Shown piece after piece: positions 22,764 through 59,506 of a stretch of 64,000 bases of DNA (within the stretch, counting starts at the first letter, position 1; the number at the start of each line of letters is the position of its first letter). The position numbers and the translations under genes were made by a program. The notes beneath the pieces were generated by a model that saw only the letters and a list, made by a program, of their open reading frames with translations, made no database searches and had not been told where the DNA came from. The DNA comes from Mobula hypostoma. Lineage: Eukaryota. Location of the stretch: positions 7,750,001 to 7,814,000 of the forward strand of contig NC_086097.1 of the NCBI RefSeq assembly GCF_963921235.1, read 5' to 3'.

Positions 22764-22801
22764 CAGTCGACGTTTCTGGCCGAGACCCTTCGTCAGGACT
22801 A
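22764..22801 (-). ncRNA. Minimal type-I hammerhead ribozyme motif
   Basis: TAGTC-CTGACGA-AGGGTCTCGGCCA-GAAACGTC^GACTG on the minus strand. Confidence 0.75.
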
Positions 22802-23096
22802 ACTGAAGGAAGAGTGAGTAAGGGATTTGAAAGTTGGAGGGGGAGGGGAAGATCCAAAATGATAGGAGAAGACAGGAGGGGGAGGGATAGAGCTAAGTGC
22901 TGGACAGATGATAGGCAAAAGGGAATATGAGAGGATCATGGGACAGGAGGTCCGGGAAGAAGGACAAGGGGGGGGGTTGACCCAGAGGATGGGCAAGAGG
23001 TATATTCAGAGGGACAGAGGGAGAAAAAGGAGAGTGAGAGAAAGAATGTGTGCATAAAAATGAGTAACAGATGGGGTACGAGGGGGAGGTGGGGCC

Positions 23097-24233
23097 TTAG
23101 CGGAAGTTAGAGAAGTCGATGTTCATGTCATCAGGTTGGAGGCTACCCAGACGGAATATAAGGTGTTGTTCCTCCAACCTGAGTGTGGCTTCATCTTTAC
23201 AGTAGCGGAGGCCGTGGATAGACATGTCAGAATGGGAATGGGATGTGGAATTAAAATGTGTGGCCACTGGGAGATCCTGCTTTCTCTGGCGGACAGAGCG
23301 TAGATGTTCAGCAAAGCGGTCTCCCAGTCTGCGTCGGGTCTCGCCAATATATAAAAGGCCACATCGGGAGCACCGGACGCAGTATATCACCCCAGTCGAC
23401 TCACAGGTGAAGTGTTGCCTCACCTGGAAGGACTGTTTGGGGCCCTGAATGGTGGTAAGGGAGGAAGTGTAAGGGCATGTGTAGCACTTGTTCCGCTTGC
23501 GCGGATAAGTGCCAGGAGGGAGATCAGTGGGGAGGGATGGGGGGGATGAATGGACAAGGGAGTTGTGTAGGGAGCGATCCCTGTGGAATACAGAGAGAGG
23601 CGGGGAGGGAAAGATGTGCTTAGTGGTGGGATCCCGTTGGAGGTGACAGAAGTTACGGAGAATAATATGTTGGACCCGGAGGCTAGTGGGGTGGTAGGTG
23701 AGGACCAGGGGAATCCTATTCCTAGTGGGGTGGCGGGAGGATGGAGTGAGAGCAGATGTACGTGAAATGGGGGAGATGCGTTTAAGAGCAGAGTTGATAG
23801 TGGAGGAAGGGAAGCCCCTTTCTTTAAAAAAGGAAGACATCTCCCTCGTCCTAGAATGAAAAGCCTCATCCTGAGAGCAGATGTGGTGGAGATGGAGGAA
23901 TTGCGAGAAGGGGATGGTGTTTTTGCAAGAGACAGGGTGAGAAGAGGAATAGTCCAGATAGCTGTGAGAGTCAGTAGGCTTATAGTAGACATCAGTGGAT
24001 AAGCTGTCTCCAGAGACAGAGACAGAAAGATCTAGAAAGGGGAGGGAGGTGTCGGAAATGGACCAGGTAAACTTGAGGGCAGGGTGAAAGTTGGAGGCAA
24101 AGTTAATAAAGTCGACGAGTTCTGCATGCGTGCAGTAAGCAGCACCAATGCAGTCGTCGATGTAGCGAAGGAAAAGTGGGGGACAGATACCAGAATAGGC
24201 ACGGAACATAGATTGTTCCACAAACCCAACAAA
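23097..24233 (-). CDS. Penelope-like RT (C-terminal half) plus GIY-YIG endonuclease, uninterrupted frame
   Basis: Part of ORF 23097..24320; the first ~29 aa of that ORF come from flanking DNA; YIDD, LPFLD, YYKPTD and GIY-YIG motifs present. Confidence 0.9.
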   Translation of the reverse strand, partial: FVGFVEQSMFRAYSGICPPLFLRYIDDCIGAAYCTHAELVDFINFASNFHPALKFTWSISDTSLPFLDLSVSVSGDSLSTDVYYKPTDSHSYLDYSSSHPVSCKNTIPFSQFLHLHHICSQDEAFHSRTREMSSFFKERGFPSSTINSALKRISPISRTSALTPSSRHPTRNRIPLVLTYHPTSLRVQHIILRNFCHLQRDPTTKHIFPSPPLSVFHRDRSLHNSLVHSSPPSLPTDLPPGTYPRKRNKCYTCPYTSSLTTIQGPKQSFQVRQHFTCESTGVIYCVRCSRCGLLYIGETRRRLGDRFAEHLRSVRQRKQDLPVATHFNSTSHSHSDMSIHGLRYCKDEATLRLEEQHLIFRLGSLQPDDMNIDFSNFR

Positions 24234-24933
24234 AATAAATGCTTTAGGTTCCAATTTCTGGGGATGTGGCAGCCGTATAGTCCTAAAGCCAACTGCCCAG
24301 TCAGCATCAACACTTAACAACTGACAGGGAGTTTCCTACACTCCAGGAACTGGATATGCTGTTGCCATCACTTTCCATACCTGAAACCTTGGAGCAGATG
24401 GACTGCCAGACAGCACAATGTAGAACCAGCAAAGGGTATCAAATTATTATTTTTAACAAGAGACCTTTGTTTCTTCAATTCCAGAAATATATCTTCTCTT
24501 GGCATGTTTTTGGGAAACTTATAGTGTGATAAAACAAATATCACTGTGCACAAGTAGAAGAATAATAAACCACATTTGTAGAAAGGTGAAATAACATAAC
24601 CCACAATATTAACTTCAGTAAAAGGGCATGAGTTGACTTTTTCACATAAAGGCACAATTCAAGCTTTCTGGTCATTAAAGTGAGGTCTGCTTTTGAAAGG
24701 AATTGAATTATTTCCCACTCACTGCACCCAATATCAATACTCAACCACTCCCAAGCCAAGTATAGCACAGGCCAAATATCGATGTTAGCTCCATCCTTGT
24801 TTTTCAAGTGTTTCCTCATCAACATAGGACAGTTGAATTACTGTAGAGGTACAAAAGTAAGATGCCTTTGAGTTACACACATCGAAGTTGCTGGTGAACG
24901 CAGCAGGCCAGGCAGCATCTCTAGGAAGAGGTA

Positions 24934-24971
24934 CAGTCGACGTTTCGGGCTGAGACCCTTCGTCAGGACTA
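24934..24971 (-). ncRNA. Minimal type-I hammerhead ribozyme motif
   Basis: TAGTC-CTGACGA-AGGGTCTCAGCCC-GAAACGTC^GACTG on the minus strand. Confidence 0.8.
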
Positions 24972-25626
24972 ACTGAAGAAAGAGCTAGTAAGAAATTTGA
25001 AAGTGGGAGGGGGAGGGGGAGATCCAAAATGATAGGAGAAGACAGGAGGGGGAGGGATGGAGCCAAGAGCTGGACAGGTGATTGGCAAAAGGGATATGAG
25101 AGGATCATGGGACAGGAGGCCCAGAGAGAAGGAAAAGGGGGAGGGGGGATAAAACCCAGAGGATGGGCAAGGGGTATAGTCAGAGGGATAAAGGAGAGAG
25201 AGAGAAAGAATGTGTGTATGTAAATAAATAACGGATGGGATACGAGGGGGAGATGGGGCATTAACGGAAGTTAGAGAAGTCAATGTTCATACCATCAGGT
25301 TGGAGGCTACCCAGACGGAATATAAGGTGTTGTTCCTCCAACCTGAGTGTGGCTTCATCTTTACAGTAGAGTAGACCGTGGATAGACATATCAGAATGGG
25401 AATGGGATGTGGAATTAAAATTCCTCGTGTTTAAGTCCAGGACCAGCCTATTGGCTCAGGGTGTCTGACCCACCGAGAGAGAAGTTGTAAAGTTTGATGA
25501 CCACAGGCAGGAGTGACTTCCTGTCCAGGTCTTGGCTCCATCCTTCCCCCTCCTGTCTTCTCCTATCATTTTGGATCTCCCCCTCCCCCTCCAACTTTCA
25601 AATCTCTTACTCACTCTTCCTTCAGT

Positions 25627-25664
25627 TAGTCCTGACGAAGGGTCTCGGCCTGAAACGTCGACTG
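25627..25664 (+). ncRNA. Minimal type-I hammerhead ribozyme motif
   Basis: TAGTC-CTGACGA-AGG(GTCTCGG)CCT-GAAACGTC^GACTG; stems I and II pair; predicted cleavage after 25659. Confidence 0.85.
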
Positions 25665-25849
25665 CACCTCTTCCTAGAGATGCTGCCTGGCCTGCTGCGT
25701 TCACCAACAACTTTGATGTGTGTTGCTTGAATTTCCAGCATCTGCAGAATTCCTGTTCTATGCCTTTGAGTTATGTTAGCAACCTGAGGCATCCAGGTGT
25801 TGAACACTAGGGCAATTTGAAGGACAGTTTTTCAGTGATAATATTCATT

Positions 25850-26340
25850 AGTATCTGGAGTATTGCATACGGTTCTGGTCACTCCATTATAGGAAGGATG
25901 TTGAGGCTTTGGAGAGGGTGTAGAAGAACTTTACTAGGATGCTGCCTGATTAGAGGGCATGTGCTACAAAGAGAGGATGGACAAACTTGGACTGTTTTCT
26001 TTGGAGAGGCAGAGGCTGAGGAGAGATCTGATGAAGGTTTATAAGATTATCAGAGGCATAGATAGAATGGACAGACTCTTTTTTTCCCCCAGGGTTGAAA
26101 TACCTAATACTAGAGGGCATGCACTTCAGGTGAGAGGGAGTAATTTTAAAGGAGATGTGAGGGACAAGTCTTTCACACAGAGAGTTGATAGGTTCTTGTT
26201 TAGTAAAGATGTCAAACATTATGAAGAGAAGGTAGTGGAATGGGGTGAGAGGGATAATAAATTAGCCATGGTGGAATGGCGGAGAAAACTTGATGGACTG
26301 AATGGCCTAATTCTACTCCTATGTCTTACAGTCTTACAGT
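25850..26340 (+). mobile_element. CR1 LINE 3' fragment
   Basis: LGLFSLERQRLRRDLMKVYKIIRG motif; (TCTTACAG)2 tail. Confidence 0.85.
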
Positions 26341-27039
26341 TGAAGTAGAGAAGGTAGATAGTACCTGTCAGGAGTTTGTACATTCTCCCTGTTAACATGT
26401 GGGTTTCCTCTGGGTGTTCTGGTTTCCTCCCACAATCCAAAGACATACCGGTTGGTAGGATAATAGGTCAGTGTAAATTGTCTTGGGATTAGGATAGGGT
26501 TAAATTGGGGGATTGGTGGGCGGTGCAGTTCAAAGGACTGGAAGGGCCTATTCTGTGCTGTATCTCAATAAATATTTTTTTTAAATTTGCAGTTTTTTTT
26601 ACTGGAAAAATATTGAATAATAAAATGCATGGCTTTAAGGTAAGAAGGGCAAAATTTAAAGGAGAGAGTACCTGGAACTGTGGTAGAAGCAAATACAATG
26701 TTTAATTGAGACAGGCAAATGAACAGGTATGAAATTGAGGGATATTGACTGTGTGCAGGCAGATGGTATTACTGGCACAGGCATTGTAGGCCAAAGTATT
26801 TATTCCAGTGCTGAAATGTCCTGTGTTCTATGTTCTAAAACCTCCAATCAATTCATCAAACAGTACTCCAAATATTATACCTTAGTATTTTCCCAAATTC
26901 TTTGTCCGTATTTATTTAAATGAACAAAGATGTGCCTTATTTATGAAAGAACTCACTGATGACGATCAATATTATTCTTCTATGTACTTATTCTACAGAG
27001 ATTGTCAGCTTCCCACAGAAGTGGTTAGTGTGACACTAT

Positions 27040-28065
27040 GCAACACACGTAAAAGTTGCTGGTGAACGCAGCAGGCCAGACAGCATCTATAGGAAGATGT
27101 TTCGGGCTGAGACCCTTCGTCAGGACTAACTGAAAGAAACGCTAGTAAGAGATTTGAGAGGGGGAGGGGGAGATCCAAAACGATAGGAGATGGGGTACAA
27201 GTGGGAGGAAGGGCATTAACGGAAGTTAGAGAAGTCGATGTTCACGCCATCAAGTTAGAGGCTACCCAGACGGAATATAAGGTGTTATTCCTCCAACCTG
27301 AGTGTGGTTTCATCTTGACAGTAGAGGAGGCCGTGGATAGACATCAGAATGGGAATGGGACGTGGAATTAAAATGTGTGGCCACTGAGAGACCCTGCTTT
27401 CTCTGGCAGACAGAGTGTAGGTGTTCAGTGAAATGGTCTCCCAGTCTGTGCCGGGTGTCGCCAATATATAGAAGGCCACATCGGGAGCACCGGACGCAGT
27501 ATATCACCCCAGCCGACTCACAGGTGAAGTGTCGCCTCACCTAGAAGGACTGTCTGGGGCCCTGAATGGTAGGAAGTATAAGGGCATGTGTAGCACTTGT
27601 CCTGCTTACAAGGATAAGTGCTGGGAGGGAGATTAGTGGGGAGGTATGGGGGGAGGGGGAACGAATGGACAAGGGAGTCGCAAAGGGAGCGATCCCTGCG
27701 GAAAGTGGGGGGGCAGGGGAGGGAAAGATGTGCTTAGTGGTGGGATCCCATTGGAGGTGGCGGAAGTTACGGAGAATTATATGTTGGACCTGGGGGCTGC
27801 TGGGGTGGTAGGTGAGGACCAGGGGAACCCTATTCCTAGTGGGGTGGCAGGAGGATGGGGTGAGAGCAGATGTGTGTGAAATGGGAGAGATGCGTTTGAG
27901 AGCAGAGTTGATGGTGGAGGAAGGGAAACCCCTTTCTTTAAAAAAGGAGGACATCTCCTTCATCCTGGAATGAAAGGCCTCATTCCTCCCTCACCACCAT
28001 TCAGGACCCCAGACTGTCCTTCCAGGTGAGGCGACACTTCACCTGTGAGTCGGCTGGGGTGATAT
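27040..28065 (-). mobile_element. Penelope-like element with deletions and a short 5' inversion (about 27983-28065 on +)
   Basis: GIY-YIG ORF 27310-27540; the + piece TTCCTCCCTCACCACC...GGGGTGATATA is the reverse complement of 27500-27570; hammerhead at about 27097-27128 lacks the 3' strand of stem I. Confidence 0.9.
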
Positions 28066-29114
28066 ATAATAAATAAGAAGATTCAACACTCAACTATTGT
28101 TACAACAGTAATAACAATAAATAAAGAATGAATATCAAGAACACGAGATGAGGAATTCTTGAAAGAGAGTACAGTTCAGTAGGAGCATTTTAGTGATGCG
28201 GCGAATGAAGTTATCCCCTCTGGTTCAAGAGTTTGGTGGTTGAGGGGTAATAACTGTGCCTGGTCATGTGAATACCTTTTTCCTGAAAGCTGCGGAGAGA
28301 AGAGAGCATGGCCTAGGTGGTGGAGGTCCATGATGACGGATGCTGCTACTTGATGGATATTATTAAACATAAGAAATAAATAGGAGCAGGAGTAGGCCAT
28401 CTAGTCCATCGAGCCTGTTCCACTATTCCATAAGATCATGGCTGATCTGGCCATGGACTCATCTCCACCTACCTGCCTTTTTCCCATAACGCTTAATTGC
28501 CCTGCTCTGCAAAAATATATCTAACCTTGTCTTTTTTAAGAACTGTAACTGGTGAACAGATGCATTTCTGTGTTCTGCAATACCAAATCATTTGAAACAA
28601 TAAATATTTTATTTGAAATGCTCTCAAGATGTACTAAACCCAGCAACGCACAGCAGCAAACCCCTTTCCTGCACAGTAAGAACACTTTGAAGCATTGGCT
28701 ACTCTCATGTTCAAAACATTGACGACGAGCTCCATTCAATAGAAGCAAGGTTTTGGGAGGAAAAGGTAGGATGCTTTCCAAAGGAATCAGGATTAAAGGT
28801 GAAGATGTTTGAGGATCAATGGTGTTGAAGAGAACAAATGATGAGACAAAAAAGACAAGATTCCAAGCAAAAATATCTGCCTTGTACACAGTACTTGATC
28901 ATATCGGATTTAAAACTAAGCTAACAACCAGTTGTCCTTACCAACCAGAATAAGATAAATTAACACCTATACAGTACATCACAGGAATTTGATTTACATA
29001 CATTATAAGAGCTCTAAGACTGCTTTAGCAACACAAATAAATTCAGTGCATTTGGGTAAATTTCAAAAGAAACATTGAACAAACATACAAAATATATTCT
29101 GGTGTGTATCATCT

Positions 29115-29570
29115 TATGTCAGGATGAGGCCACCCTCACTGTGAAGGAGCAACACCTTATATTCCATCTGGTTAGCCTCAGACCAGATGGTTAGAATATT
29201 GATTTCTCCCTCCAGTAAACAAATTCAACCCACCATCTCTTCCTCTATTCCCCACCTTGACATTTTACCTCTTCTCACCTGCCTATTACTTTCCTCTGTG
29301 TCCCCTCCCCCATCCCTTTCTCCTATGGTCCATTCTCATCTCCTATCAGATTCCTTCCTCTCCAGCCCTTTACTTTTCCTACCCAGTTGGCTTTACCTAT
29401 CACCTTTTAGCTATCTTCTTTCCCCAATCCTGACCTTTTTATTCCCGCATTTTCCCCCTTCCATTCCCGTCCTGAAGAGGGGCCTTGACCCGAAACTTCG
29501 ACTATCTATTCATTTCCATAGATGCTGCCTGACCCGCTGAGTTCCTTCAGCATTTAATGTGTCTTACACA
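29115..29570 (+). mobile_element. Older Penelope-like 3' fragment with degenerate hammerhead
   Basis: QDEATL...EQHLIF end of the endonuclease; GTC-CTGAAGA-GGGGCCTTGACCC-GAAACTTC-GAC at about 29469-29503. Confidence 0.75.
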
Positions 29571-29699
29571 AAAAATCTTTTCCGAGGCTAGAATGAGCAT
29601 CCATGTGGAGAATTGGAAAAATGCGTCTGGAACAGGGAAACTCCAGGTTTTGCTACCTGGTTTAAAACTCAGGCCAAATTGGATAGAACAAAACTAATC

Positions 29700-30557: not shown

Positions 30558-30687
30558 GAAGTCACAACTCATTTCCAGTGGGGGTGGGGTGGGAATAAGG
30601 CTGATAGGATTCATGGTTTTCCTAATGTTCTTTTTGTAACTTGTAGCTTGTGGCTCACCTTCATTCCAACACCTGGTACACAGCCTC

Positions 30688-30990
30688 TGCTATGATTCGT
30701 AACTTCAAAACATTAAACTAATTCCTGGGAAGACATGAGAGTCTGAAATGAGACCAGAAGACCATATGACATAGGAGCAGAAGCAGGCCATTTGGCCCAT
30801 CGATAAATGTGAGTCCAACTTTGGGTTTACTTTAAGTGAGGCGCATGCATATCATGTGGTAGCGTGATGACTTATGCAATTCACGTATTTATACATATTC
30901 CCTGTAATAAATTATTTAAATGAACTGGAATGCTTATTCAATATATAGACATGATTATTCAAATATTATTTAAATATTAAATACACAAGA
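30688..30990 (-). mobile_element. Solo LTR with 5-bp TSD, containing a ~50-bp CR1 3' scrap at 30752-30803
   Basis: Starts TGCTATG, ends CACAAGA (CA end mutated); GCCTC direct repeat at 30683-30687 and 30991-30995. Confidence 0.65.
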
Positions 30991-35725: not shown

Positions 35726-35899
35726 TGTTGTGTCTGTAAACAACTACATATATACTAAATAAAAACACGCATGCGGGAGATGGTTTTAACTGGTGTACCC
35801 ACAGAGAAAGAGAGTGACAACAATGCGCATGCTGAGACAACAGATCAATACGTAGTGCTAAGGGGGGGGGGGGTTATTAATCTAAAAGAAATAGATCCA
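35726..35899. mobile_element. 174-bp TG...CA insertion, solo-LTR-like, inside a Rex-type fragment
   Basis: TGCATT direct repeat at 35720-35725 and 35900-35905; host frame ESFLTGCI resumes after it. Confidence 0.55.
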
Positions 35900-37865
35900 T
35901 GCATTACAGCATTGCCGCCTAGTATGGACGGGCCACTGCACAGAATCAGAAAAGGCTGCAGAAAATTTCAAACTCAGCCAGCTTCACCATGGTCACTAGC
36001 CTCGCTAGCACCGATGACATCTTCAAAAAGGCGGCGTTTATTACACAGGACATGTCCTTACAGCATTGTTACCTTCAAGCGGAGGTACATGAGCCTGAAT
36101 AAACACGCTCAACATTTCAGGAATAGTTCATTTCAAACTAACATGTCTCCCTGTCTAAACCCAGTTCACTTTCCCTACTAGTGGGTGAACAATTCAACAC
36201 TTGGTGACTTCTGCTTCAGGATTACAAGCAAAAGAAAATCTGCAGATGCTGGAAATCTGAGCAACACACACAAAATGCTGGAGGAACTCAGGAGGCCAGG
36301 CAGTATCTATGGAAAAGAGTACAGTCGACGTTTTGGGCTCTGCTTCACAATGGTAGGACAGTGGACAATCCCTAAAAAGCTACCTCACTTATTTATGTTA
36401 TATATAAATATAAACAAATAAACACATACATATTTATATATTTCTTATTGCCTTTGAATGTCAACTGTGGTGCTTATCTACTCAAATTCTATTTTCCCAT
36501 TAGATTCATACCCCTTTATTGCTTTCCTATCCAAGTTCGTCCAAATTCCTTTTAAACATTGTCTTCATGTTTGCCTTTATTACTTCCTCTACCAGTGCTT
36601 TGCATATGTTCACTACCCCTTGTGTGAAAAATCTGCCTCTAAAATCTCTTTTGAATTTGTTCCCTCTCAACTTCAAGTTCAGCCTTCTAGGTTAAGCTCC
36701 CCTGCCCATGGAAGAAAGATTCTGATTACTTATCCTACCTTTGCCCCTCATAATTTTGCAAACCTTGATAAGGTCAATCCTCAGTCTCCTCCACGCCAGA
36801 GAGAGCAAACCCAAACCATCCAAACTCTCCTTGGATCTACTGCCCTTCAATCCAGGCAACATCCTGGTGAATCTCTTCTGCACTCTCTATTGCTATTAAG
36901 TTTTTCGTGTAGTGTGATACCCAGAACAGTAGGTAATATTATAGTATTCTGAATGTAATCTTTTTGAAATCCATGAAAGTCATTTCTTTTGCATTCCCAT
37001 CTCCTTGTATGACAAATAAGTATAAACCTCTTCATATGGGCACCATGGTAGCATGGAAATTAGCCTGACATTATTACAGCTCAGGGCACCAGACTTCAGT
37101 GTTCAGTTCCAGCAATGAAAGGAGTTATAAGGAGATTGCACATCCTTTGCATGAACCACGTGTGTTTCCTCCAAGTGCTCCCGTTTCCTCCCTTATTCCA
37201 AAGACATGCCAGTTTGTATGTTAGTTAGTCATTGTAAATTGTACTGTGATTAGACAAGGTGTGTTGCTGGACGGTGCGGCTTGGTGGGGCAGAAGGGCTT
37301 GTTCCATGCCGTATCTCTAAATAAATAAATTTGGATAAAGGGAACACATGTTCAGCTGTTCACTAAGTTTTTTTTTCTCCCTTTGTTCACCTTCTTCATT
37401 CCTACTCCAAGCCTGCTTCCATCTGGTCATCATCCCCCTCCCATTTGTTTCCACCCATGTTCTACCAGTCTTCATCTCACTACCCCACCTTCTCTCCCCC
37501 TCTCTTCATACTGCTATATCCTGGAAATCCTTTCAATTCCTTCTTAGTCCTGATCAGGGTCTAGACTGGAAATGTCAGGAAAAATACCACCTTTTTCTTC
37601 CATAGATCCTGCGGGACTCACTATATTCTGTCTGTTCCTAGTTCTCATACCTGCAGTGTCTTTTGTTTTCATCTTAACAATACTGCCTGCTTATCTGGCA
37701 ATCCACTACCATTTCCAAATCTATTCTCTCCTCTACCGGCATACTGTGTCTAACTGTCATGTAGTGCATTGAAGCAGCTCACTGAAGTTTTTCTTTTAAC
37801 AAGTACCACACAAATCCTCCTGTCTATAAAGTGAAGGAAAGCAGGTTCAGGAAATTGCTGACCAT

Positions 37866-40672: not shown

Positions 40673-42260
40673 TATTACCCTGCAGTTGACTTAAATTATC
40701 TAAATTCTGAGACTATTTTAGCTCTGAATTACTAAACAACTAAACTTGCTTGATTTTCCAAGTTGCACTTTTCTTTGATAATTCCCCTATCATATAAAAT
40801 GCAGAATGATTGTCTCAGAACAGAAGCGTGGAACAATGTGTAACACGGCTTAGATTTTAAACTCATGAGGCTGAACTGTAGCTAACAAATCCATGTGAAG
40901 ATCGATAAGAGGCTAATTGCTGGCACTAGTGTGTTCCATCTGTAAATGGGAGTCAATTTGACAATTTCCAGCTCCTCTCCAAGGTCAGATGAAACCAATA
41001 GGAAATAATACCCTCTTTATTAAAGTTGCTGCTCGGGTCTCTTGGCAGTCCCATACTTGTGAATTTCAGTGTTAAATCATCAGAAGTGCCTCTTTTAAAC
41101 TCAGACAACGCATCAAGGCTTTGCCAAATTGTGCAGAAGACCAGACCACATTTTGATGATGTACTGAAAAATATTTCTAATGACCTTTTCTCCCTTGAAC
41201 AACACCGACAAACAACATAGCACAGCTAGTTTTCTATTTGTGAAAATGCTCTGGATAATAGAGTCATAAAAATGTTATTGAGAACCACAGTCAAGAAATA
41301 GGTCCTTTGGCTCATCTAGCCCATGCCAACTCTTGCCTTAAATTTGGTTGATAGTTTCCTGTGTCTATTTATATGAACACAATTGACTGGATCTGAAGTA
41401 CACTGGATTGTAAGAAATTATATGCATATCCATATTTCATATAATTGTCTTTATTTTTACTTCATTGTTAAAAGGAAACATTGTCAATATCTATCAGTTT
41501 TTATTTAATCTAATGAGTTACAAGAATTGCTTTTCTCAGTAGAGTAACCAATCCTTTATGTAAACTGATCCTTAAAGCAAATTGGACTAATATAAAACAG
41601 AATGTGTATTTGTGAATTTGCTTTCCAATTTTAAAACAATTTTTTTTTGTGATTGCATTTTTTGTATGCATGAGTCTCGAACCACTTTGACCACCTATAT
41701 GGTTTTGCACCCCAAAAACTGGTAGACTATAAGAGTACCCTTATAAGTAATCGACAGGTCAGGCAGCATTTGTTCTGATGACAGTCTGTTGACTGAATTG
41801 TTAATTCTGTTTCTCTGCCTACAGATACAGCCTGACTTTCTGAATATTTCCAAAATTTCCTGTAATATATTTTCTTTTCACTCATAGCATAAACAAGAGA
41901 AAATCAGCAGTTGCTGGAAATCCAAGCAACACACACAGAATGCTAGAGGAACTCAGCAGGCCAGGCAGTATCTAGCAAAATACAATGATGCAGGAACTCA
42001 GCAACAAAAACAATGGTACAGAAACATGGCAACACACTAAAATGGTGCAGGAAACCCTTTGACTTACATTTTTCCATATGTGCTGCCTGGCCTTCTGAGG
42101 TCCTGCAGAATTTTGTGTGTTTTGCTTTTTCACTTTTTTTTCTATTTTTGATACTATATCATTCCTTTGACTAGAACCACATTCAACAATATATTCAAGC
42201 AACACACACAAAAATTGCTGGTGAACGCAGCAGGCCAGGCAGCATCTCTAGGATGAGGTA

Positions 42261-42298
42261 CAGTCAACGTTTCAGGCCGAGAACCTTCGTCAGGACTA
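42261..42298 (-). ncRNA. Minimal hammerhead motif (cleavage triplet GUU variant)
   Basis: TAGTC-CTGACGA-AGGTTCTCGGCCT-GAAACGTT-GACTG on the minus strand. Confidence 0.75.
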
Positions 42299-43156
42299 AC
42301 TGAAGGAAGAGCTAGTAAGAGATTTGAAAGTGGGAGGGGGTGGGGGAGATCCGAAATGATAGGAGAAGACAGGAGGGGAGGGGTGGATCTAAGAGCTGGA
42401 GGAGGGAGAGGATCGTGGGATGGGAAGCCTGGGGAGAAAGAGAAGGGGGGAGGAGAGCCCAGCGGGTGGAGAGCAGGCAAGGAGTTATACTGAGCGGGAT
42501 AGAGGGAGAGAAAAGAGAGAGAGAAAAGAAAGGGGAAAAATATATAAAAATATATATTAAATAAATAAATAAGGGATGGGATGTGAAGGGGAGGAGGGGC
42601 ATTAGCGGAAGTTAGAGAAGTCAGTGCTCATGTCATCAGGTTGGAGGCTACTCAGATGGAATATAAGGTGTTGTTCCTCCAACCTGAGTGTAGCCTCATT
42701 TTAACAGTAGAAGAGGCCGTGGATAGACATATAAGAGCGGGAATGGGACGTGTCAAGATGAAGCCACACTCAGGTTGGAGGAACAACACCTTATATTCTG
42801 TCTGAGTAGCCTCCAACCTGATGGCATGAATATTGACTTCTCAAACTTCCGCTAATGTCCCTCCTCCCCTTCATACCCTATCTTTTATTTATTTATTTGA
42901 TATATTCTTTATATATTTTTCCCCCTTTCTTTTCTCTCTCTTTTTTCTCCCTCTGTCCCTCTCACTATAACTCCTTGCCTGGTCTCCACCCGCCGAGCTC
43001 CCCTCCCCCCTTCTCTTTCTCCCCAGGCTTCCCATCCCACGATCCTCTCCCTCCTCCAGCTCTTAGATCCACCCCTCCCCTCCTGTCTTCTCCTATCATT
43101 TCGGATCTCACCCACCCCTTCCCACTTACAAATGTCTTACTAGCTCTTCTTTCAGT

Positions 43157-43194
43157 TAGTCCTGACGAAGGGTCTCGGCCCGAAACGTCGACTG
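43157..43194 (+). ncRNA. Minimal type-I hammerhead ribozyme motif
   Basis: TAGTC-CTGACGA-AGGGTCTCGGCCC-GAAACGTC^GACTG; predicted cleavage after 43189. Confidence 0.82.
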
Positions 43195-44289
43195 TACCTC
43201 TTCCTAGAGATGCTGCCTGGCCTGATGCGTTCACCAGCATTTTTTGTGTGTGTGTTGCTTGAATTTCCAGCAACTGCAGATTTCCTCATGTCAGCGTTTT
43301 TAAATTCAACAATATATTGGTGATTTCATGCCCAACGATTCAGGGGCAGTTTGTCCACCTTTGCCACGAGATGCCTGAATGGACATTGAATCTCTGAACT
43401 CTTCCTCACTACTTGTCTTTCTCTTTTTGCACTTCTTATTTAATTTGACTATACACGTATTCTTTGGACTGTAATTTGTACTGCTGCCGCATTTCGATAA
43501 ATTTCATGACATATGCTGATGATATTAAACCTGATTCTGATACAGCCCACTGATACAAATTCAAGATTAAATATCTATGTACAAACTTTTATGTGCACAG
43601 GCGCCACAGTAGCATAGCAGTTAGCGTGACACTTTTACAGCTCGAGGCAGCAGAAATATAAAAATTTACACAGCACCAAATGAAGAAAAGATTACATGGA
43701 TGGTAGGGGTACGGAGGGCTATGGTCCCAGCACATGTCGATGAGACTAGGCAGCTTAAATGGTTTGGCATGGACTAGGTGGGTTGAGGACCTGCTTCTGT
43801 ACTATATTTCTTTGTGACTCTATTAGGAAGAATGTTAGAGTTTTGCCTGTGAAAAAGGCTTGAAGAAGGATTCTGAAGGAGAAAATGAATTCCTGAGTCT
43901 AGTGTAAGTTAAAATAGAGGAAGAGTTGAAGGGAGACTGAATCACCCTTGCTCATTTTCCTTGTAGTGGAAGTTGCTGAGGGGGATCTGATTGTGGTAAA
44001 ACAAATTGTTAGGGGATAAGACATATTTCCCCATTGTAGGTGAGGCAGGAGGATTAAGGTGAAATGGAAAAGGTTCACAAGGAATCTTAAGAAGAATATT
44101 TTCCTCAGGGTGGTTAGAAGCTGACAACAGTCAAGAAACATCTGGATCCCCGTAAAAACATATGGGGGTAGGAAGTTTAAATGATTTGGCATGGACTAGA
44201 TGGGTGAAAGGCTTGTGTTGTATTTTTCTATGACTCTGTGACTCTATATGCGTGTGATAAATTGGAATAGATTAGATTGGTACTTGTTT

Positions 44290-51346: not shown

Positions 51347-52572
51347 CAGAGGGGTTCTTAATCTTTTTTTGCCATGGACCCCTTTGCCAGTCAGGTAAAG
51401 CCGACAAATTCTCAGAATAATGTATATAAAACAAAATAGTTTCTTCATTTGTGTAGGGCTTCTTTTCTTTGGCAATCCAGTAAGCAACTTTATAGAATTC
51501 ATCAAGATAATGCTTTTGTGAAATGGCAAATCTCAGTTTTAGAAGTGTCCCAACTTTTTTGAATCAAGCTTTCTTTACACGAACAACACCCGCAACTTTA
51601 GATGCATTTTTCAGAATGGACAGACGTGAGGTGCTATTTCTGTTTTGCTGGCTTCATACTTCTGTTCGCAAGAATTTTTCAACACAAAAACACTGTAACT
51701 TTTGTGTCCCGTCATGTACATTAATGCAAGTGAAACTATATAATACAGAGTTTTCATCATGCTTTCTTTAGTTCCACATTTCAACTTAAATTGTGTCTGC
51801 AAAAACTATAAAATAAATACAGCTAAAATAAAATATTTGATTCAACTGACATTTTTTGAAACTCAATCTTTTTGTACGGTTATTTGTTTGATAAATCTAC
51901 AAAGAAGTAAGTATCCTTTATGTTAATTATGTGAAGTGGAAGATATTGAAGACATTTGTATGTCAAGTAAGTAAAATAAGGCGGGTTTTACAATTTATCC
52001 AAAGTTTAACAATTTTAATGGCTTTTAGATACTCGGATAGACACAGGGATTATAGCAGTAGCTGAGGTGTCGTGTCCTTTCAAGAATTCAGCTATTATTG
52101 CGCATGGAGTCGTGTGGTATTACAAAGTCCTGCTACCTTATGGAGAGTTACAAATCTCATTTGAACTGTCCAGTTTTGCCAAAGCCTAACAAAACAATAA
52201 AAATGATTCACCTCCTTCTGATCCATTGATCAACGAGGAATTGTAGACAGGGGATGATGGAGAACGTGAGAACACCTGACTTCACTGTTTGGTGGCTGAA
52301 CGACTACTAGGCACAGGGCTGCCCGATAGTTGGCCAGCTATGTTGTATGAGCATCTGCAGACAGGAAGACTGTGATCATATTTGATCTAGCAGTGGGTCT
52401 AATAACTACTGTAATTTTGAAGTAGTGCCAAGTGTGCTGTAAACAATATTTTGAGATATTTGTAACAACTGTAATGTGCATGAAAATATCTGTGATTTAT
52501 TTTTGTGACAAAATCACAGGTACTGCTAATACTACTGTGGTTTGTTGCCTACATTCATAATCGAAGGAAATG
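51347..52572 (-). mobile_element. hAT Buster/Charlie-type DNA transposon, internally deleted, one end lost
   Basis: End CAGAGGGGTTCTTAATC...TGCCATGGACCC shares sequence with the MITE at 44919; contains a transposase remnant. Confidence 0.8.
51438..51779 (-). pseudogene. Buster-type transposase N-terminus (BED zinc finger), ZBED5/ZBED8-like, with stops and frameshifts
   Basis: Hand translation: RKHDENSVLYSFTCINVHDGTQKLQCF/LC*KILANRSMKPAKQK*HLTSVHSE/...FYKVAYWIAKEKKPYTNEET. Confidence 0.85.
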
Positions 52573-53743
52573 GCTGCAGACCAGACTTCCACTCACCTGA
52601 ACGTGGACCAGAGAGTGGCATTGCCGTACTGACGGATTCTTCATGCAGTCTAATGAACAGATAAATCTGCAGAGGCTGGATCCTGAAGCAAATGCTGAAA
52701 TGCTGGACGGACTCAGCCAGTCAAAGCTTCAGGTTGAAGACCTTGTATGCCTTCCACTCCCACATCTCCTTATTCTGGTTTCTTCCCCCTTCCTTTACAG
52801 CCCTGAAGGAGGGTCTTGGCCTGAAACATTGACTGTTCATTCATTTTTATATATACCGCCTGACTTACTGAGTCCTTCCAGCATTGTGTGTCTGTTACTG
52901 AAGATCTGCACTGTATTTCTGCAGAACGTTCTTCAAGGTGAAAGAGATTAAGCACTTCATCAGATTGTTAATGGTACAAAAAACACCAAAGTCATTTGCT
53001 TGCATTATTTGTAAATTAACAAAACCTTTATGACTAGTCTTATCACAATCACCTTTCAATAACCTTAGCAAACTACAGTAATGAACCATGCAACTAACAA
53101 ATTCATCAGTTGTATGTCTTAACTCAGAGAGAAAGAAACTCAGAGCTGCTCGATGGGAAATTTCTTATTGCTGACTGTTTTATAATCTTGCCGTCTGAAA
53201 TCTGTTTTTTTAATTGGCTTTGATTGGTTGTGAGCAATGCAAATATGTTCCATTTCATTGAGTGCACCCTGAGGCAGTCAATACTTCAATATTACTTGGC
53301 TTTCTGGAGCAGCTAGCCTCACTGGCAGATAATCCATTAAAATAGGTCAATGTAGTCTGAGAACCGAAGGTTGCGACCTTGCCTCTGGCCCATCCTTTTT
53401 CTAAAGAGTCTGGTCACCCAAATGGATTGGAAATCCCCTTATGGTTAGTCACTTTGTGAGTTCATGCAGATCTACTGAGTGGATTTTAAATACCTGAACT
53501 GACAATTGAGAGCAACCTGATGAACCACCAGAATGAAAGGAAATGTTCCTGGCCGTTGTTTGGTGTGACTAAATAGGAGGCTGTACCTTCAAGGTTCAAA
53601 GCTCAGGATTTTCCAGTACACAAGTGGAAAGGAGAATGAAATATTATTAATCTGGATCTGATGCAGCCCAAAAAGAACACAATAAAATGAAGAACACAAT
53701 GATAAAAAAACAATAAATATAAATACATAAATTAGCATACATA

Positions 53744-53814
53744 CAGTACTGTGCAAAAGGTTTATGTCTATATATATATATGGCTCGAGTGCCTAAGGAT
53801 TTTACACAGTACTC
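53744..53814. mobile_element. 71-bp Tc1-type MITE (degenerate second copy about 55753-55810)
   Basis: TA-CAGTACTGTGCAAAAG ... TTTTACACAGTACTC-TA inverted ends around a (TA)n core. Confidence 0.7.
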
Positions 53815-54069
53815 TATCTGTCAACGTGGGGCCAACAACAAGTTTGTAAATCTTGTGGAAGCAAAAGATGTTGAGAATGGTGAGGGGTGTTGCGCCATGG
53901 GAGGGGTGTGGGGCAGGTAGCAGAGAAGGAGTGTTGGGGTGGGGGGGGGGTGGATAGCATGGGTTCAGACCCACCCAGCCCTGAGACACCAGGCAAGGAC
54001 ATTTGCTTTATTGATCATTGCAGAATGTGTCTCTGGTGCTTCCCGCTCTCTCCACTCCCACTCTCGGTC

Positions 54070-55650
54070 CACAGGTGAGAAGACAGCTGAAACGTCTCAA
54101 CACAGGTGAGAAGGCAGCTGAAACGTCTCAACCCAAGCAAGGCTGCAGGACCGGATGGTGTCAGTACCAGGGTGCTCAAAGCCTGTGCCCTTCAGCTGTG
54201 TGGAGTACTTCGCCGTGTATTCAACCTGAGCCTGAGGCTCCGGAGGGTTCCTGTGCTGTGGAAGACGTCCTGCCTCGTCCCTGTGCCGAAGACGCCGCGC
54301 CCCAGCGGCCTCAATGACTACAGACCGGTGGCATTGACCTCCCGCATCATGAAGACCCTGGAGAGACTTGTTCTGGAGCTGCTCCGACCTATGGTCAGGC
54401 CACACTTAGATCCCCTCCAGTTCGCCTACCAGCCTCGACTAGGAGTTGAGGATGCAATCGTCTTCCTGTTGAACCGTGTCTACGCCCACCTGGACAAGCC
54501 AGCGAGCACTGTGAGGGTCATGTTTTTTGACTTCTCCAGTGTGTTCAACACCATCCACCCTGCTCTGCTGGGGGAGAAGCTGACAGCGATGCAGGTGGAT
54601 GCTTCCCTGGTATCATGGATTCTTGATTACCTGACTGGCAGACCACAGTACATGTGCTTGCAACACTGTGTATCTGACAGAGTGATCAGCAGCATTGGGG
54701 CTCAACATGGGACTGTCTTGTCTCCCTTTCTCTTCACCATTTACACCTCGGACTTCAACTACTGCACAGAGTCTTGTCATCTTCAGAAGTTTTCGGATGA
54801 CTCTGCCATAGTTGGATGCATCAGCAAGGAAGATGAGGCTGAGTACAGGGCTACGGTAGGAAACTTTGTCACATGGTGTGAGCAGAATTATCTACAGCTT
54901 AATGTGAAGAAGACTAAGGAGCTGGTGGTAGACCTGCGGAGAGCTAAGGTACCGGTGACCCCTGTTTCCATCCAGGGGGTCAGTGTGGACATAGTGGAGG
55001 ATTACAAATACCTGGGGATACGAATTGACAATAAACTGGACTGGTCAAAGAACACTGAGGCTGTCTATAAGAAGGGTCAGAGCCGTCTCTATTTCCTGAG
55101 GAGACTGAGGTCCTTTAACATCTGCTGGACGATGCTGAGGATGTTCTACGAGTCTGTGGTGGCCAGTGCTATCATGTTTGCTGTTGTGTGCTGGGGCAGC
55201 AGGCTGAGGGTGGCAGACACCAACAGAATCAACAAACTCATTCGTAAGGCCAGTGATGTCGTGGGGATGGAACTGGACTCTCTCACGGTGGTGTCTGAAA
55301 AGAGGATGCTGTGTAAGTTGCATACCATCTTGCTCAATGTCTTCCATCCACTACATAATGTACTGGGTGGGCACAGGAGTACATTCAGCCAGAGACTCAT
55401 TCCACCGAGATGCAGCACTGAGCGTCATAGGAAGTCATTCCTGCCTGTGGCCATCAAACATTACAACTCCGCCCTTGGAGGGTCAGACACCCTGAGCCAA
55501 TAGGCTGGTCCTGGACTTATTTCATAATTTACTGACATAATTTACATATTACTATTTAACTATTTATGGTTCTATTAATATTTATTATTTATGGAGCAAC
55601 TGTAACGAAAACCAATTTCCCCCGGGATTAATAAAGCATGACTATGATAA
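54070..55650 (+). mobile_element. Young 5'-truncated Rex1/Babar LINE
   Basis: Open RT ORF, AT-rich 3' UTR, AATAAA at 55630-55635; 31-bp tandem duplication at the 5' junction. Confidence 0.93.
54106..55503 (+). CDS. Rex1/Babar reverse transcriptase (ORF2 C-terminal part, 465 aa open)
   Basis: KAAGPDGV, DYRPVALTS, LDPLQFAYQP, FFDFSS, GTVLSPFLF, KFSDDS, YKYLG motifs without stops. Confidence 0.92.
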   Translation: MRRQLKRLNPSKAAGPDGVSTRVLKACALQLCGVLRRVFNLSLRLRRVPVLWKTSCLVPVPKTPRPSGLNDYRPVALTSRIMKTLERLVLELLRPMVRPHLDPLQFAYQPRLGVEDAIVFLLNRVYAHLDKPASTVRVMFFDFSSVFNTIHPALLGEKLTAMQVDASLVSWILDYLTGRPQYMCLQHCVSDRVISSIGAQHGTVLSPFLFTIYTSDFNYCTESCHLQKFSDDSAIVGCISKEDEAEYRATVGNFVTWCEQNYLQLNVKKTKELVVDLRRAKVPVTPVSIQGVSVDIVEDYKYLGIRIDNKLDWSKNTEAVYKKGQSRLYFLRRLRSFNICWTMLRMFYESVVASAIMFAVVCWGSRLRVADTNRINKLIRKASDVVGMELDSLTVVSEKRMLCKLHTILLNVFHPLHNVLGGHRSTFSQRLIPPRCSTERHRKSFLPVAIKHYNSALGGSDTLSQ

Positions 55651-57859
55651 TAGAGACCCATATCGAAATCAGGTTTATCATTACTCACATATGTCATGAA
55701 ATTTGTTTTTTTTTGTGGCAGCAGTACAGTGTAATACATAAAATTACTAAAATGCTGTGAAGTCTCAGGCACCCTTGATACATATATGAGACTTTTGCAT
55801 CGTGCTGTACAGAGATTAATTGTATGTCCATAAAGTGACACTATGCACAGGAGTGTCAAGTATATTCTTCAGCAGCAAGGCAGACAGTGCCATGTTGTGT
55901 TTGTTTTGTTTCCTTCAAATAAAATATGTGCAGATTTCATTGGCACCCAGTTGGCATAGTATTTATCACCTTTTCAGAATTATAATTTTCAGACTGTGGA
56001 GGTTTAGCTTCATATAAACATTGCTCACAATATAAGGAAGGGTTTGGGTGACGGAGAGCACTCTAGAAAACCCACCGCTTACACATGAGCATTCACTCAC
56101 ATGCAGCCATTGCCTTGTCATTCTGCTGTTGTCGCGGTGAGTGTGCATACTTCAATGTCTTTCCCAGTACGCCCAGTGTTTTCCCCTCCACATTGTTACA
56201 TACATTCAGTTAGACACCAAAGTTTACTTTCATTCTAAACTGAGCTGGTATTCTCGGGTTGGCTTTGTGGTGCCTTTCCCACTGTGAGTAGCAGAATATT
56301 TCATTTCTTTAGTAATGGGGGTGTGTAAAAGTGTATATGCTATTTGTATACTGTACTTAATGTACATACTTCTGCTTATTTTCTAATATGATTATAACTA
56401 CATTGTGGGGTGCATCATATTCTAATTCATGTGTCATATTATGTTAACTTTATTGGTAATTAACGACGGTATGTCCTAGAGTGAAAAAAAACTCATCGCC
56501 GTCAGTAAGGGAGAGAGAGAGAGATTGGGGCTGCCAGGAGTTCTTACTGGAGAAAATAGTATGGTAGTATTCTTGTGTTTTCTGGTAGATATCATTTTGT
56601 GAATGTTGGCATTTTTCTTTTCACTATTTTCTCTAATGAACACCCTTACACTGAAGTGCTAAGTGACGTCAGCCATTTCTCTTGGGTCATAACTCAGGTA
56701 TCGAACATTTTAATTATTTTATACATTGTTATTGAGGACAATATCTTGATTTTACCTCCACTTTGCTCCCAACAAGGACTCGCTTCCTGGCAGCTTACAA
56801 GTCAATCACAGTAATATGGGTCTGCAGTCAGGTGGAGGCCAGCAAGGAAAGCAGGTCAGATTTCTTTCCCTCATTGGCATTTATAAAGTAATATGGGCTA
56901 GTTCCTACGACAAAATAGTGCTCTTTACTACAACTACCTGTATTTTTCACTCAGACTATCAATTTAAATTTTCAATTGCCCATTAAATGAATTTGAACTG
57001 GAGTCCCTGGATTAGAATCAGAATCAGGTTTACTATTATTGGTATATTTTGTGAAATTTGTTGTACAATTTAATACATAATTTTGAAAAACAATAAATTA
57101 TATATGTATATAAATTATAAAAGAGTAGTGCAAAAATGGTAAGGTAGTGTTCAAGAGTGCATTGTCCATTCAGAAATCTGATGGCAGAGGGGGAGAAGCT
57201 GTTCCTGAAACTTTGAGTGTGTGTCTTTAGACTCCTGTACTTCAGTAAAGACCTGTATTTATGGTGAACGGAGAAGCCATCAAACTGCAGCACTGCATCC
57301 AAAATGGTGGGAGGTTAGCCATGTTTCTGTGAAGCAAAGTTCACAGAAGTCCCTGATGTCCCTGATTATTATGAGTCCTGACCTTGGAAGTATGAATCAG
57401 CACTGCATATTTGTTTGTGAGAATATTTATTTTTGTGTTTTTAATTTATCATTCACTGTGATATCACTCTGATCATAAGAAGTAAATCTAGAAATATTTA
57501 TCTAGTCAGGCAGCACCTGCAAAAGGAGACAAAATTAATGTTTCATGTCTGAGACCCTTCATCACCTGTGGCTCCCAAAGTTGAAGAATTAACTGTTTCT
57601 ACTTCTGCAGAAGCTTCCTGACCTGCTGAGTGCTTTAGTTTTAGTTTCAGTTTTAGAGATTCAGAACAATAACAGGTCCTTCTAGCCCAATGAGCCCGTA
57701 TACAATTATATAAAAATTTGTTTGTGCATTCAAATTTGTTTGGCAGTTGTTAAATGAGTTACTTTTATTAGTTCACTCTCAGCAGAGCAAAATGTACATT
57801 TTCTTATTAACTAGCCTTCTAAATATTTTGCTTGGTATTTGCTATCACTATCTGCCTCT

Positions 57860-58104
57860 CTGTAACCACACCATGGACTGCCCCAACCCCAGCTGCAAAA
57901 GGAGGAAAGTTGGCCAAGGGGCTAGCAACCCCATCCGATAAAAACCCAGAGCTACAGAAACACCAACAGAAGATCCAAAGGCTTCATTCCTAGAAGAGAA
58001 AGAATATACCAGCAAGCTGGGCTACCTGCAAGACAGGCTCAGGACAGAGAAATCTGGCAAGGTGCTGTCGGTGCCCCATGCCATGTAGGGATGATGAGCT
58101 TAAG
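57860..58104 (+). mobile_element. Short RTE-type non-autonomous element with degenerate twister-like head
   Basis: Head CCCCAACCCCAG...AAAGGAGGAAAGTTGG-GGGGCTAGCAACCCCATCC; tail AQDREIW-like RTE C-terminal coding remnant. Confidence 0.55.
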
Positions 58105-58627
58105 AGAGAAGGGAAATGCACCTCACTGCAGATATCCTTGTATGTCATAGTAGCTATGCATCCTCAAGCATCCATTAAATAACTGGTACTTTCTCCAACC
58201 ATGCTTCCAATTGGATTCATCTCCAAAGGTTTTAAACCATTCCCACATTTCTCCATCAACTGATCTCACCCAGCAACATAATGCTGATTCTTTGGATGAT
58301 CCTGACGTCCCCTTTCTCTCGCCCACACTCATTATTGACACCACCTTAAGTTCCCTTACACCAAAGACTCTCTCTTCCACTTTGATCACGGAGCTGCCTT
58401 GTTTCCTCCACCTGTTCTCAAACAATAATCGGGCTTTGTTCTTCACACAGCAGAGAACTTAAACTGCCTGTAGCCTCAGAGAAAAGCAGCACAGGCTTCC
58501 CCACATGGTATAGACTTAATGTGCCTGTTGAGATAAAACAAGAATTTCAAAGCCGATATTCTGTAAATTCAGACCAGAAACAAACTGACCTGGAGAGCCA
58601 CCTAATACCAGACTAATTCTTTGTGCG

Positions 58628-59506
58628 CAGACATGAGGAAAGCTGCAGATGCTGGAAGTTCAAGCAACACGCACAAAAAGTGTTGGTGAACACATCAGGC
58701 CAGGCAGCATCTATAGGAAGAGGTACAATCGACGTTTTGAGCCGGGACCCTTCATCAGGACGAACTGAAAGAAGAGATAGTAAGACATTTGTAAATGGGA
58801 GGGGGTGGGTGAGATCCGAAATGATAGGAGAAGACAGGAGGGGAGGGGTGGATCTAAGAGCTGGAGGAGGGAGAGGATCATGGGACAGAAAGCCTGGGGA
58901 GAAAGAGAAGGGGGGAGGGGAGCTCGGCGGGTGGAGAGCAGGCAAGGAGTTATAGTAAGAGGGACAGACGGAGAAAAAAGAGAGAGAGAAAAAAATGGGG
59001 AAAAAAAATATATATTAAAAAATATTAAATAAATAAATAAGGGATGGGGTGTGAAGGGGAGGAGGGGCATTAACAGAAGTTAAAGAAGTCAGGTTGGAGG
59101 TTACCCAGACGGAATATAAGATGTTGTTCCTCCAACCTGAGTGTGGCTTCATCTTGACAGTAGAGGAGGCCATGGATAGGCGTATCAGAATGGGAATTAA
59201 AATGTGTGGCCACTGGGAGATCTTGCTTTCCCTGGCGGACAGAGCGTAGGTATTCAGCGAAACTGTCTCCCGGTCTGCGTCGGGTCTCGCCAATATATAA
59301 AAGGCCACATCGGGAGCACCGGACGCAGTATATCACCCCAGCCGACTCACAGGTGAAGTGTCGCCTCACCTGGAAGGACTGTCTGGGGCCCTGAATGGTG
59401 GTGAGGGAGGAAGTGTAAGGGCATGTGTAGCACTTGTTCTGCTTTGACTGTACCTTTTCCTATAGAGACTGCCTGGCCTGCTGCGTTCACCAGCATTTTT
59501 TGTGTG
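58628..59506. mobile_element. Penelope insertion: minus arm 58628-59444 plus short inverted tail 59446-59506
   Basis: GIY-YIG ORF 59070-59369; 14-bp direct repeat TAATTCTTTGTGCG (58614-58627) / TAATCCTTTGTGCG (59507-59520); hammerhead at 58726-58763 has a GAAA>AAAA change. Confidence 0.92.

Follow-up and report, generated by a model that had tools for sequence, protein, structure and literature searches.

A minimal hammerhead motif in the 3' repeat of a Penelope-like element of Mobula hypostoma

A 64,000-nucleotide (nt) stretch of the Mobula hypostoma genome (GCF_963921235.1, NC_086097.1 positions 7,750,001-7,814,000; hereafter the window) contains many copies of a 38-nt motif located in the 3' repeat of a Penelope-like element (PLE). 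It is likely that this motif is a minimal type-I hammerhead of a PLE with a C-terminal GIY-YIG endonuclease and a cysteine linker of the Neptune/Nematis type, and it may take part in trimming transcripts to unit length. The initial annotation of this DNA had proposed a repeated hammerhead whose helix III is reduced to the palindrome ACGU, which is placed in a Penelope-like 3' repeat and which cleaves the family's own RNA. The recurrence of the motif is confirmed, although some of the details given for individual copies were not borne out. The interpretation is partly supported: the minimal type-I architecture of the motif and its location were borne out, and self-cleavage is a putative activity.

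The motif in the window and in distant relatives

Read as RNA, the motif runs UAGUC, CUGAcGA, A, GGGU-CUCG-GCCY, GAAA, CG, UC, the cleavage site, and GACUG. It combines both catalytic boxes with a bulged A, a helix I of 5 base pairs (bp), one of which is G-U, and a 4-bp helix II closed by a tetraloop. There is no helix III hairpin; the palindrome ACGU stands in its place and is kept in every intact window copy. The catalytic bases (C3-U4-G5-A6-N7-G8-A9, G12-A13-A14, A15.1/U16.1, and H17) are all in place. The 38-nt string was found at 22764(-), 24934(-), 25627(+), 42261(-), and 43157(+), with 1, 2, 0, 2, and 1 mismatches, respectively, and did not occur in 100 shuffles of the window, and the core pattern CTGANGA..GAAACGTC matched 4 of those five sites and was likewise missing from 100 shuffles. 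A structural descriptor matched the window 4 times but neither its reversed sequence nor any of 20 shuffles, and it rejected the copy at 22764 for its G10.1/A11.1 mismatch. When the window was searched with a covariance model built from relatives (17 training rows, one of which is the window copy at 25627), 12 sites were obtained with E<=0.014, the next candidate having E=0.19. These include all ten sites named in the initial annotation, the five described there as damaged (~20182, 27097, 29469, 52798, and 58726) among them, and two further sites. Of the five copies that had been called intact, those at 25627, 24934, and 43157 deserve the description, but those at 22764 (G10.1/A11.1) and 42261 (U17 and a change in helix II) do not. 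It was also too strong to state that every copy of the 3' repeat carries the motif, since 4 of the 17 repeat pieces detected by BLAST in the window are 5'-truncated past or within it (36338-36230, 41973-41880, 42066-42127, and 59446-59514). When the window and 232,449 bases of loci were scanned with a descriptor, the Penelope-like family was the only hammerhead family to appear.

The relatives were represented by 80 loci in metagenome contigs, which were taken from a protein-alignment scan and have 34-57% protein identity. Motifs in these loci were picked by the two core boxes alone, so that the stems were not selected on, which gave 21 instances, 17 of them distinct when the window copy is included. 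Most instances are on the coding strand, 94-142 nt beyond the protein match, and three are located ~2.9-3.4 kb before the end of the protein match. In the 17 instances, the helix I pairs 2.1-1.1, 2.2-1.2, and 2.3-1.3 are formed in 100, 88, and 82%, respectively, compared with 24-53% for slid partners, and pairs 1-4 of helix II are formed in 88-100%; none of 2,000 partner shuffles reached the observed pair counts. The palindrome ACGU is present in 13 of the 17 distinct instances and the remaining 4 deviate from it by one base, while the pair 10.1-11.1 is GC in 15, GU in 1, and another combination in 1. The bulged A is invariant, though the pattern used for selection had demanded it. In a MAFFT alignment, 8 of 9 pairs showed changes on both sides, and the covariation score was 0.685, compared with 0.220 +/- 0.036 after shuffling (0 of 500 as high) and <=0.135 for slid registers; several alignment rows are closely related to each other, and the cells of this comparison are thus not independent events.

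The covariance model gave 49 matches with E<=0.01 in the 80 loci, a number that includes matches by construction because 16 of the training rows come from these loci. The sequence continues for at least 300 nt past the protein match in 47 loci; 29 of these have a plus-strand match downstream, mostly at a distance of 85-148 nt from the protein match, and no minus-strand match was found downstream of the protein match in any of the 80 loci. All 15 minus-strand matches are located upstream of the open reading frame (ORF), which is again the layout of inverted copies, and four plus-strand matches precede the start of the protein match by 1.7-4 kb. When the descriptor was applied to the relatives by exhaustive parse, 6 plus-strand matches and 1 minus-strand match were obtained with helix I of at least 4 bp, 13 and 3, respectively, with helix I of at least 3 bp, and 0 in the reversed sequences. 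Relatives lacking the motif or its covariation, or a motif unlinked to a GIY-YIG ORF, were looked for in the relatives' loci and in the window and were not found. The motif occupies the same place downstream of the ORF and both of its helices covary, and it is therefore a selected RNA structure, which the active lineages of the clade retain.

Abundance, cleavage, and the pile-up of 5' ends

In 3.48 Gb of the window's own genome, contained in 200 contigs, there are 89,802 copies with an exact core (44,809 + 44,993), compared with 287 (141 + 146) for the reversed control. Variation was analyzed in 100 copies (L031-L120 among them) that were anchored by an 18-mer located 14-31 nt after the cleavage site, for which the genome has 67,661 matches and the control 0. 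Positions -47 to +57 are spanned by 57 of these copies, which were used for the counts of variation. The core bases are kept in 47 of the 57, the core together with ACGU and both helices in 40, and all of these without any mismatch in 32. CpG positions deviate from the majority in 8-11% and non-CpG core positions in 1.1% (6/564); after 11 sites with at least 10% variants were dropped, the stems deviated in 1.9%, and the 3' and 5' flanks in 2.0% and 1.5%, respectively. Within the motif, frequent variants are limited to N7, loop II, and 11.1, where C or U can each pair with G10.1 (in the window's family the G-U pair is the majority and G-C the minority), and another frequent variant is found just past helix I at position 1.6, so that all frequent variants fall at tolerated positions. 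This variation looks like the neutral decay of dead copies. The tail-end piece with the motif is the most abundant part of the element because insertions are mostly 5'-truncated, and nearly all of the ~90,000 exact-core copies are dead, neutrally decaying tail-end fragments. As a side observation, contigs of runs labelled as nine organisms contain 15-85% of the sampled words of the 252-nt repeat, and near-identical copies of the repeat seem to be present in several species.

The mechanism that we propose would begin with two motifs, for example one in an upstream pseudo-long terminal repeat (pseudo-LTR) and one at the element's own 3' end, which would pair via ACGU and swapped strands of helix I. 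By analogy with published work, the paired motifs would form a double hammerhead, which would cleave after GUC, and this cleavage, probably a weak one assisted by the protein of the element, would trim read-through or multimeric transcripts to unit length. The suggestion in the initial annotation that such motifs act as dimers matches the published view (PMC4209133), and we infer by analogy that the RNA of this family may cleave itself in vivo.

Several results weigh against this interpretation. Nearest-neighbour folding gave no thermodynamic support for the double hammerhead: an inactive rod in which GACG (5-8) pairs with CGUC (15.2-17) has an energy of -11.0 kcal/mol, compared with -7.0 for the hammerhead-like monomer, and the double hammerhead has -12.9 kcal/mol, compared with -23.4 for two monomers and -31.7 for the dimer optimum. 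Such energies leave out tertiary contacts, and they agree with published findings that minimal hammerhead ribozymes (min-HHRs) have weak activity, with poor cleavage in vitro (PMC4209133), and that the hammerhead of the green anole element depends on protein (PMC11167929). For the anole element, the latter paper reports that hammerhead mutants had no effect on insertion in vitro and that no RNA-seq reads ended at the cut site. Because cDNAs of cleaved templates would start at G1.1, the first base past the cut, copies with this start were counted as a genomic proxy; just 1 of the 100 anchored copies has it. In the window, one short inverted arm, at 59446, starts at the cleavage product, and a palindrome centred on the cleavage site is present at 75 genome sites, which the native GTCGAC palindrome could produce by microhomology alone. 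Rfam gave no hammerhead match at gathering thresholds in the window, none at E<=10 over 19000-60000 (41 kb), and none with a 111-nt query, for which the sole match was a spurious one to PrrB/RsmZ. The miss is expected and is not counted against the motif, because the Rfam hammerhead models require a helix III hairpin. Furthermore, no significant excess conservation of the core relative to the flanks was detected within the family when polymorphic sites were left out (6/564 versus 58/3253, p=0.29), although the core differed from the 3' flank when they were retained (p=0.007). The extra conservation of core bases among genomic copies, whose absence the initial annotation had named as a refuting result, thus did not reach significance within the family. 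That test is not valid and has little power, because the copies are dead; the informative comparison, across lineages, was clearly positive.

The 5' ends of the copies, in contrast to the scarcity of starts at the cut site, accumulate in the 5' half of the motif. In 25 of the 100 anchored copies, they fall within -37..-22, which covers the 5' strand of helix I and the CUGAcGA box, an excess with binomial p=3.6e-9 relative to a uniform distribution over -100..+6 and p=2e-4 relative to one over -37..+6. In 25 of the 38 copies with 5' ends in -40..+10, the end lies directly next to an inverted arm belonging to the same element. These counts are limited by an uncertainty of a few bases in the alignment ends and by the double entry of each inverted pair. 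The junction of GACCCTTYRTC with CTGAYRAAGGGTC occurs at 873 genome sites and a junction centred on TTCGAA at 32. With a disjoint second anchor allele (T), 13 close inverted pairs were present among the first 100 matches listed, and in 9 of them the mean arm end, judged by coordinates alone, fell in -37..-15. The window 5' ends at 20213, 36338, and 59446 follow the same pattern. The pile-up could arise if nascent complementary DNA (cDNA) folds back on the inverted repeats of the motif, if two cDNAs become joined after priming on both DNA strands, or if the RNA has a discrete 5' end near C3. Some 5' junctions, such as those of L038 and L042, also contain antisense tail pieces (CAAACAACAGGA).

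These ends bear on an alternative in which the conserved structure serves retrotransposition in some other manner than cleavage, either as an element for binding or folding of the template RNA or as a self-complementary cDNA end or fold-back point that shapes head-to-head units. We consider this rather unlikely. It would account for the pile-up, for the inverted arms adjoining most of the ends near the motif, for the recurrent junctions including the 75 cleavage-centred palindromes, and for the result with the second allele, and it agrees with what PMC11167929 states, namely that the anole protein nicks and extends both DNA strands and that insertion in vitro is unchanged by hammerhead mutations. 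However, cross-lineage conservation picks out precisely the core bases of the catalytic hammerhead, which a plain hairpin would not need, and in the PLEs of fungi, plants, and protists this place is occupied by active canonical hammerheads (PMC4209133). Moreover, the pile-up may be a by-product of the short GTC/GAC inverted repeats present in any hammerhead, and its figures are subject to the uncertainty of the ends and the double entry of pairs. It is similarly doubtful, on our assessment, that the 5' half of the motif, and not the cleavage site, is a preferred cDNA end or fold-back place, through self-complementarity or through an RNA 5' end near C3, and thereby sculpts the head-to-head units; if this were true, about one quarter of the tail-end copies would owe their shape to the motif, and its selected role may include a step at the DNA level.

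Much less probable is that the hammerhead is a selfish passenger without benefit, kept through its location in an obligatory 3' region, a possibility raised in Craig et al. 2021 (PMC8557442). According to that paper, Naiad and most Chlamys PLEs thrive without canonical hammerheads, and the lack of excess core conservation in the 57 copies of the Mobula family could be read in the same way. Nevertheless, the core is invariant and the stems carry compensatory changes in relatives that cannot be aligned in the flanks, and position and strand agree in 29 of 47 informative loci; a functionless passenger would not preserve such features. A chance likeness of the repeat to the hammerhead consensus, for which the absence of an Rfam match might speak, was refuted by the reversed and shuffled controls (0 descriptor matches in the reversed and shuffled window, and 89,802 versus 287 in the genome) and by covariation in independent lineages.

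The Penelope-like element and its copies

The coordinates of the motif copies and of the element are listed in Table 1. The ORF P0001 contains the sequence motifs YIDD, CYTC, CVRCSRC, and LYIGET, and its Pfam match to GIY-YIG (E=3.2e-4) has 21.4 bits, slightly below the cut-off of 22.6. Among 2,996 candidates, 29 longer homologues were found with E<=0.001, mostly ~750-930 amino acids (aa) in length. Because P0001 equals only residues 522-902 of a 904-aa homologue, this copy is 5'-truncated. With P0004 as the tblastn query, four ORF pieces were identified in the window; none is on the plus strand, and on the minus strand a hammerhead follows each of them. The consensus of the protein family has CxRxRCxTC and CxxC ahead of LYIGET, of which the decayed window ORF retains just KCYTC from the CxRxRCxTC linker. 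A CX2-5CxxC Zn-finger-like linker between the reverse transcriptase (RT) and the endonuclease is a trait of Neptune and Nematis (Craig et al., PMC8557442), and the C-terminal GIY-YIG endonuclease after the RT agrees with Neptune as well. The label "Neptune-type" used in the initial annotation is consistent with these features but not proven by them.

Table 1. Hammerhead motifs and Penelope-like element pieces in the window
Position	Strand	Feature	Support or score
25627..25664	+	Minimal hammerhead, all features intact (helix I 5 bp; helix II 4 bp, G10.1-U11.1; ACGU; C17)	43.1 bits, model training row
43157..43194	+	Minimal hammerhead, intact, G10.1-C11.1	48.9 bits
24934..24971	-	Minimal hammerhead, intact, loop II G->A	48.1 bits
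22764..22801	-	Hammerhead, core intact, G10.1/A11.1 mismatch; 296 nt past ORF stop	36.9 bits, fails descriptor
42261..42298	-	Hammerhead with U17 and helix II G->U	34.4 bits
20181..20219	-	Copy 5'-truncated within CUGAcGA box, lacking helix I 5' strand and C3	25.3 bits
27090..27129	-	Damaged hammerhead: ACGU->ACAU; 11-nt deletion takes out helix I 3' strand	25.1 bits
29466..29505	+	Old diverged hammerhead: G16.2->U, helix II C/A mismatch; repeat 66% identical to reference	26 bits
52797..52836	+	Old damaged hammerhead: A9->G, ACAU, U17	23.2 bits
58725..58764	-	Damaged hammerhead: G12->A with helix I and II changes	36.8 bits
62830..62869	-	Damaged hammerhead, absent from initial annotation: C3->U, AUGU	24.3 bits
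37964..38003	-	Damaged hammerhead, absent from initial annotation: G12->A, AUAU, U17	15.7 bits, E=0.014
23097..24335	-	5'-truncated Penelope-like ORF P0001, 412 aa: RT motif YIDD, Cys-rich linker, GIY-YIG endonuclease	Motifs, Pfam, homologue alignment
25273..25428	-	Further P0004 ORF piece (residues 850-902, in copy 24875..25428)	tblastn
27352..27984	-	Penelope-like ORF fragment, P0004 residues 652-859, upstream of damaged hammerhead 27090	tblastn
59079..59441	-	Penelope-like ORF fragment, P0004 residues 773-898, upstream of damaged hammerhead 58725	tblastn
22661..22907	-	3' repeat of P0001 copy: 3' untranslated region (UTR) through hammerhead to tail	BLAST
24875..25428	-	Second 5'-truncated copy, directly upstream, same strand (ORF end, 3' UTR, hammerhead); pseudo-LTR role	BLAST, tblastn
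25520..25771	+	Inverted 5'-truncated copy, head to head with copy 24875..25428	BLAST
42193..43299	.	Two head-to-head 5'-truncated copies: 42400-42193 (-), 42751-43299 (+)	BLAST
59446..59514	+	Short inverted arm beginning at GACTG, first base past predicted cleavage site	BLAST, alignment

On the minus strand, the inverted piece 25771-25520 is followed by the short truncated copy 25428-24875 and then by the longer copy 24335-22661, and judging from their sequence the window copies have typical Penelope-like architecture in being 5'-truncated, tandem, and head-to-head. The motif begins ~300 nt past the stop codon of P0001. Measured from the cleavage site, the short class of 3' ends lies 66 nt and the long class ~105 nt further downstream. 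In the 100 anchored copies, 57 of the 3' ends are at +38..+78 and 43 at +94..+112 from the cleavage site. The two classes are ~36 nt apart, a gap that matches the Penelope-like "tail", which in the anole element is the stretch between two reverse-transcription start sites (PMC11167929).

An intron end at helix I, such as that of Penelope in Drosophila virilis (PMC4209133), was also considered, as a stretch resembling a 3' splice site (TACTMAC, a pyrimidine tract, and CAG) ends one base ahead of helix I (25599-25626 and other copies). This idea was dropped because the copies starting there have upstream flanks that share no relationship with one another or with the ORF. In the relatives there is no AG at the position before helix I, the splice-like stretch is not conserved, and no spliced copies were seen.

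Other features of the window were noted in passing. A decayed fragment resembling eukaryotic 28S ribosomal RNA (36140-36242, minus strand; model positions 2885-2984, 44 bits compared with a gathering score of 50) directly follows the 3' tail of the truncated copy 36338-36230 and could be a chimeric retrocopy or a chance neighbour. A 470-aa frame at 54091-55503 (+), with RVT_1 at E=3e-22 and an ALKBH8_N-like match, probably belongs to an unrelated retroelement of the long interspersed nuclear element type, and its start (54083-54133) has a short tandem of GAGACGTTTCAGC units with a weak match to mir-722 (E=4.4). Another RT fragment at 14976-15605 (-), with RVT_1 at E=1.4e-9, is unrelated to the Penelope-like copies.

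Comparison with known hammerheads and significance

The motif class and its biology have already been described. The min-HHR class was defined by Cervera & de la Peña 2014, who detected it in the pseudo-LTRs of every PLE that they studied, fish Neptune elements among them, reported opposite-strand pairs 100-700 bp apart, and listed four hallmarks, which the Mobula motif shows as well (PMC4209133). The Mobula motif resembles these PLE min-HHRs in its CUGANGA and GAAA boxes, the lack of a helix III hairpin, the palindromic 15.2-16.2 (CG), the unpaired base between 9 and 10.1, G10.1-C/U11.1, and a short helix I (3-5 bp), as well as in its location in the terminal repeat of an RT/GIY-YIG element and in the widespread occurrence of both single motifs and opposite-strand pairs. 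It differs in detail in that the closing pair of the majority allele is G10.1-U11.1 and, compared with the Schistosoma min-HHR, whose helix II has 7-8 bp, in having a helix II of 4 bp with a tetraloop. The number of exact cores is ~10x the largest counts in that paper, ~9,000 in Xenopus tropicalis and ~4,000 in coelacanth. No match to the exact motif string, in DNA or RNA form, was found in the searchable papers, which do not cover the supplementary figures of PMC4209133. The motif also shares the catalytic core and an open helix I with the canonical type-I hammerhead (Rfam Hammerhead_1), but because it has no helix III hairpin it is not matched by the Rfam models, and a single molecule cannot form the active fold.

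In the green anole element Poseidon PAc, according to PMC11167929, the hammerhead is likewise located upstream of a region with two reverse-transcription start sites. The start codon of the PAc ORF, however, lies inside the hammerhead, whereas the Mobula motif follows the stop codon, and cleavage of PAc was measured and is protein-dependent, whereas that of the Mobula motif is predicted. The animal non-LTR retrozymes, as presented in bioRxiv 10.64898/2026.07.22.740005, also have type-I hammerheads, which are related to those of PLE pseudo-LTRs, and they occur in vertebrate classes other than birds and mammals. A retrozyme consists of short units repeated head to tail and gives circular RNAs, whereas the Mobula copies are mostly solitary or head to head: only 3 pairs of same-strand neighbours within 2.2 kb were present among the first 100 genome matches listed, with one more in the window, where BLAST showed no retrozyme-like tandem array. 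Neighbouring motifs in the genome matches are mostly on opposite strands. In the telomeric PLEs Athena and Coprina, which lack an endonuclease, a hammerhead is similarly found near the 3' end, adjoining reverse-complement telomeric repeats, and is thought to expose the 3' end for priming at telomeres (cited in PMC8557442). The Mobula element, in contrast, has an endonuclease, no telomeric repeat, and ~100 nt of element past the cut site.

These results indicate that a real catalytic-RNA motif was recognisable from a first reading of the raw sequence. Its sites are best annotated as tail-end fragments of a Penelope-like element and not as independent ribozyme genes, and the ~90,000 exact cores make up one of the largest single-family hammerhead sets in a genome. 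To what was known of the class, this work adds that covariation across distant relatives supports selection for the fold. It further adds that starts at the cut site are scarce and that ends are piled up in the 5' half of the motif, which bears on the role of hammerheads in endonuclease-bearing PLEs.

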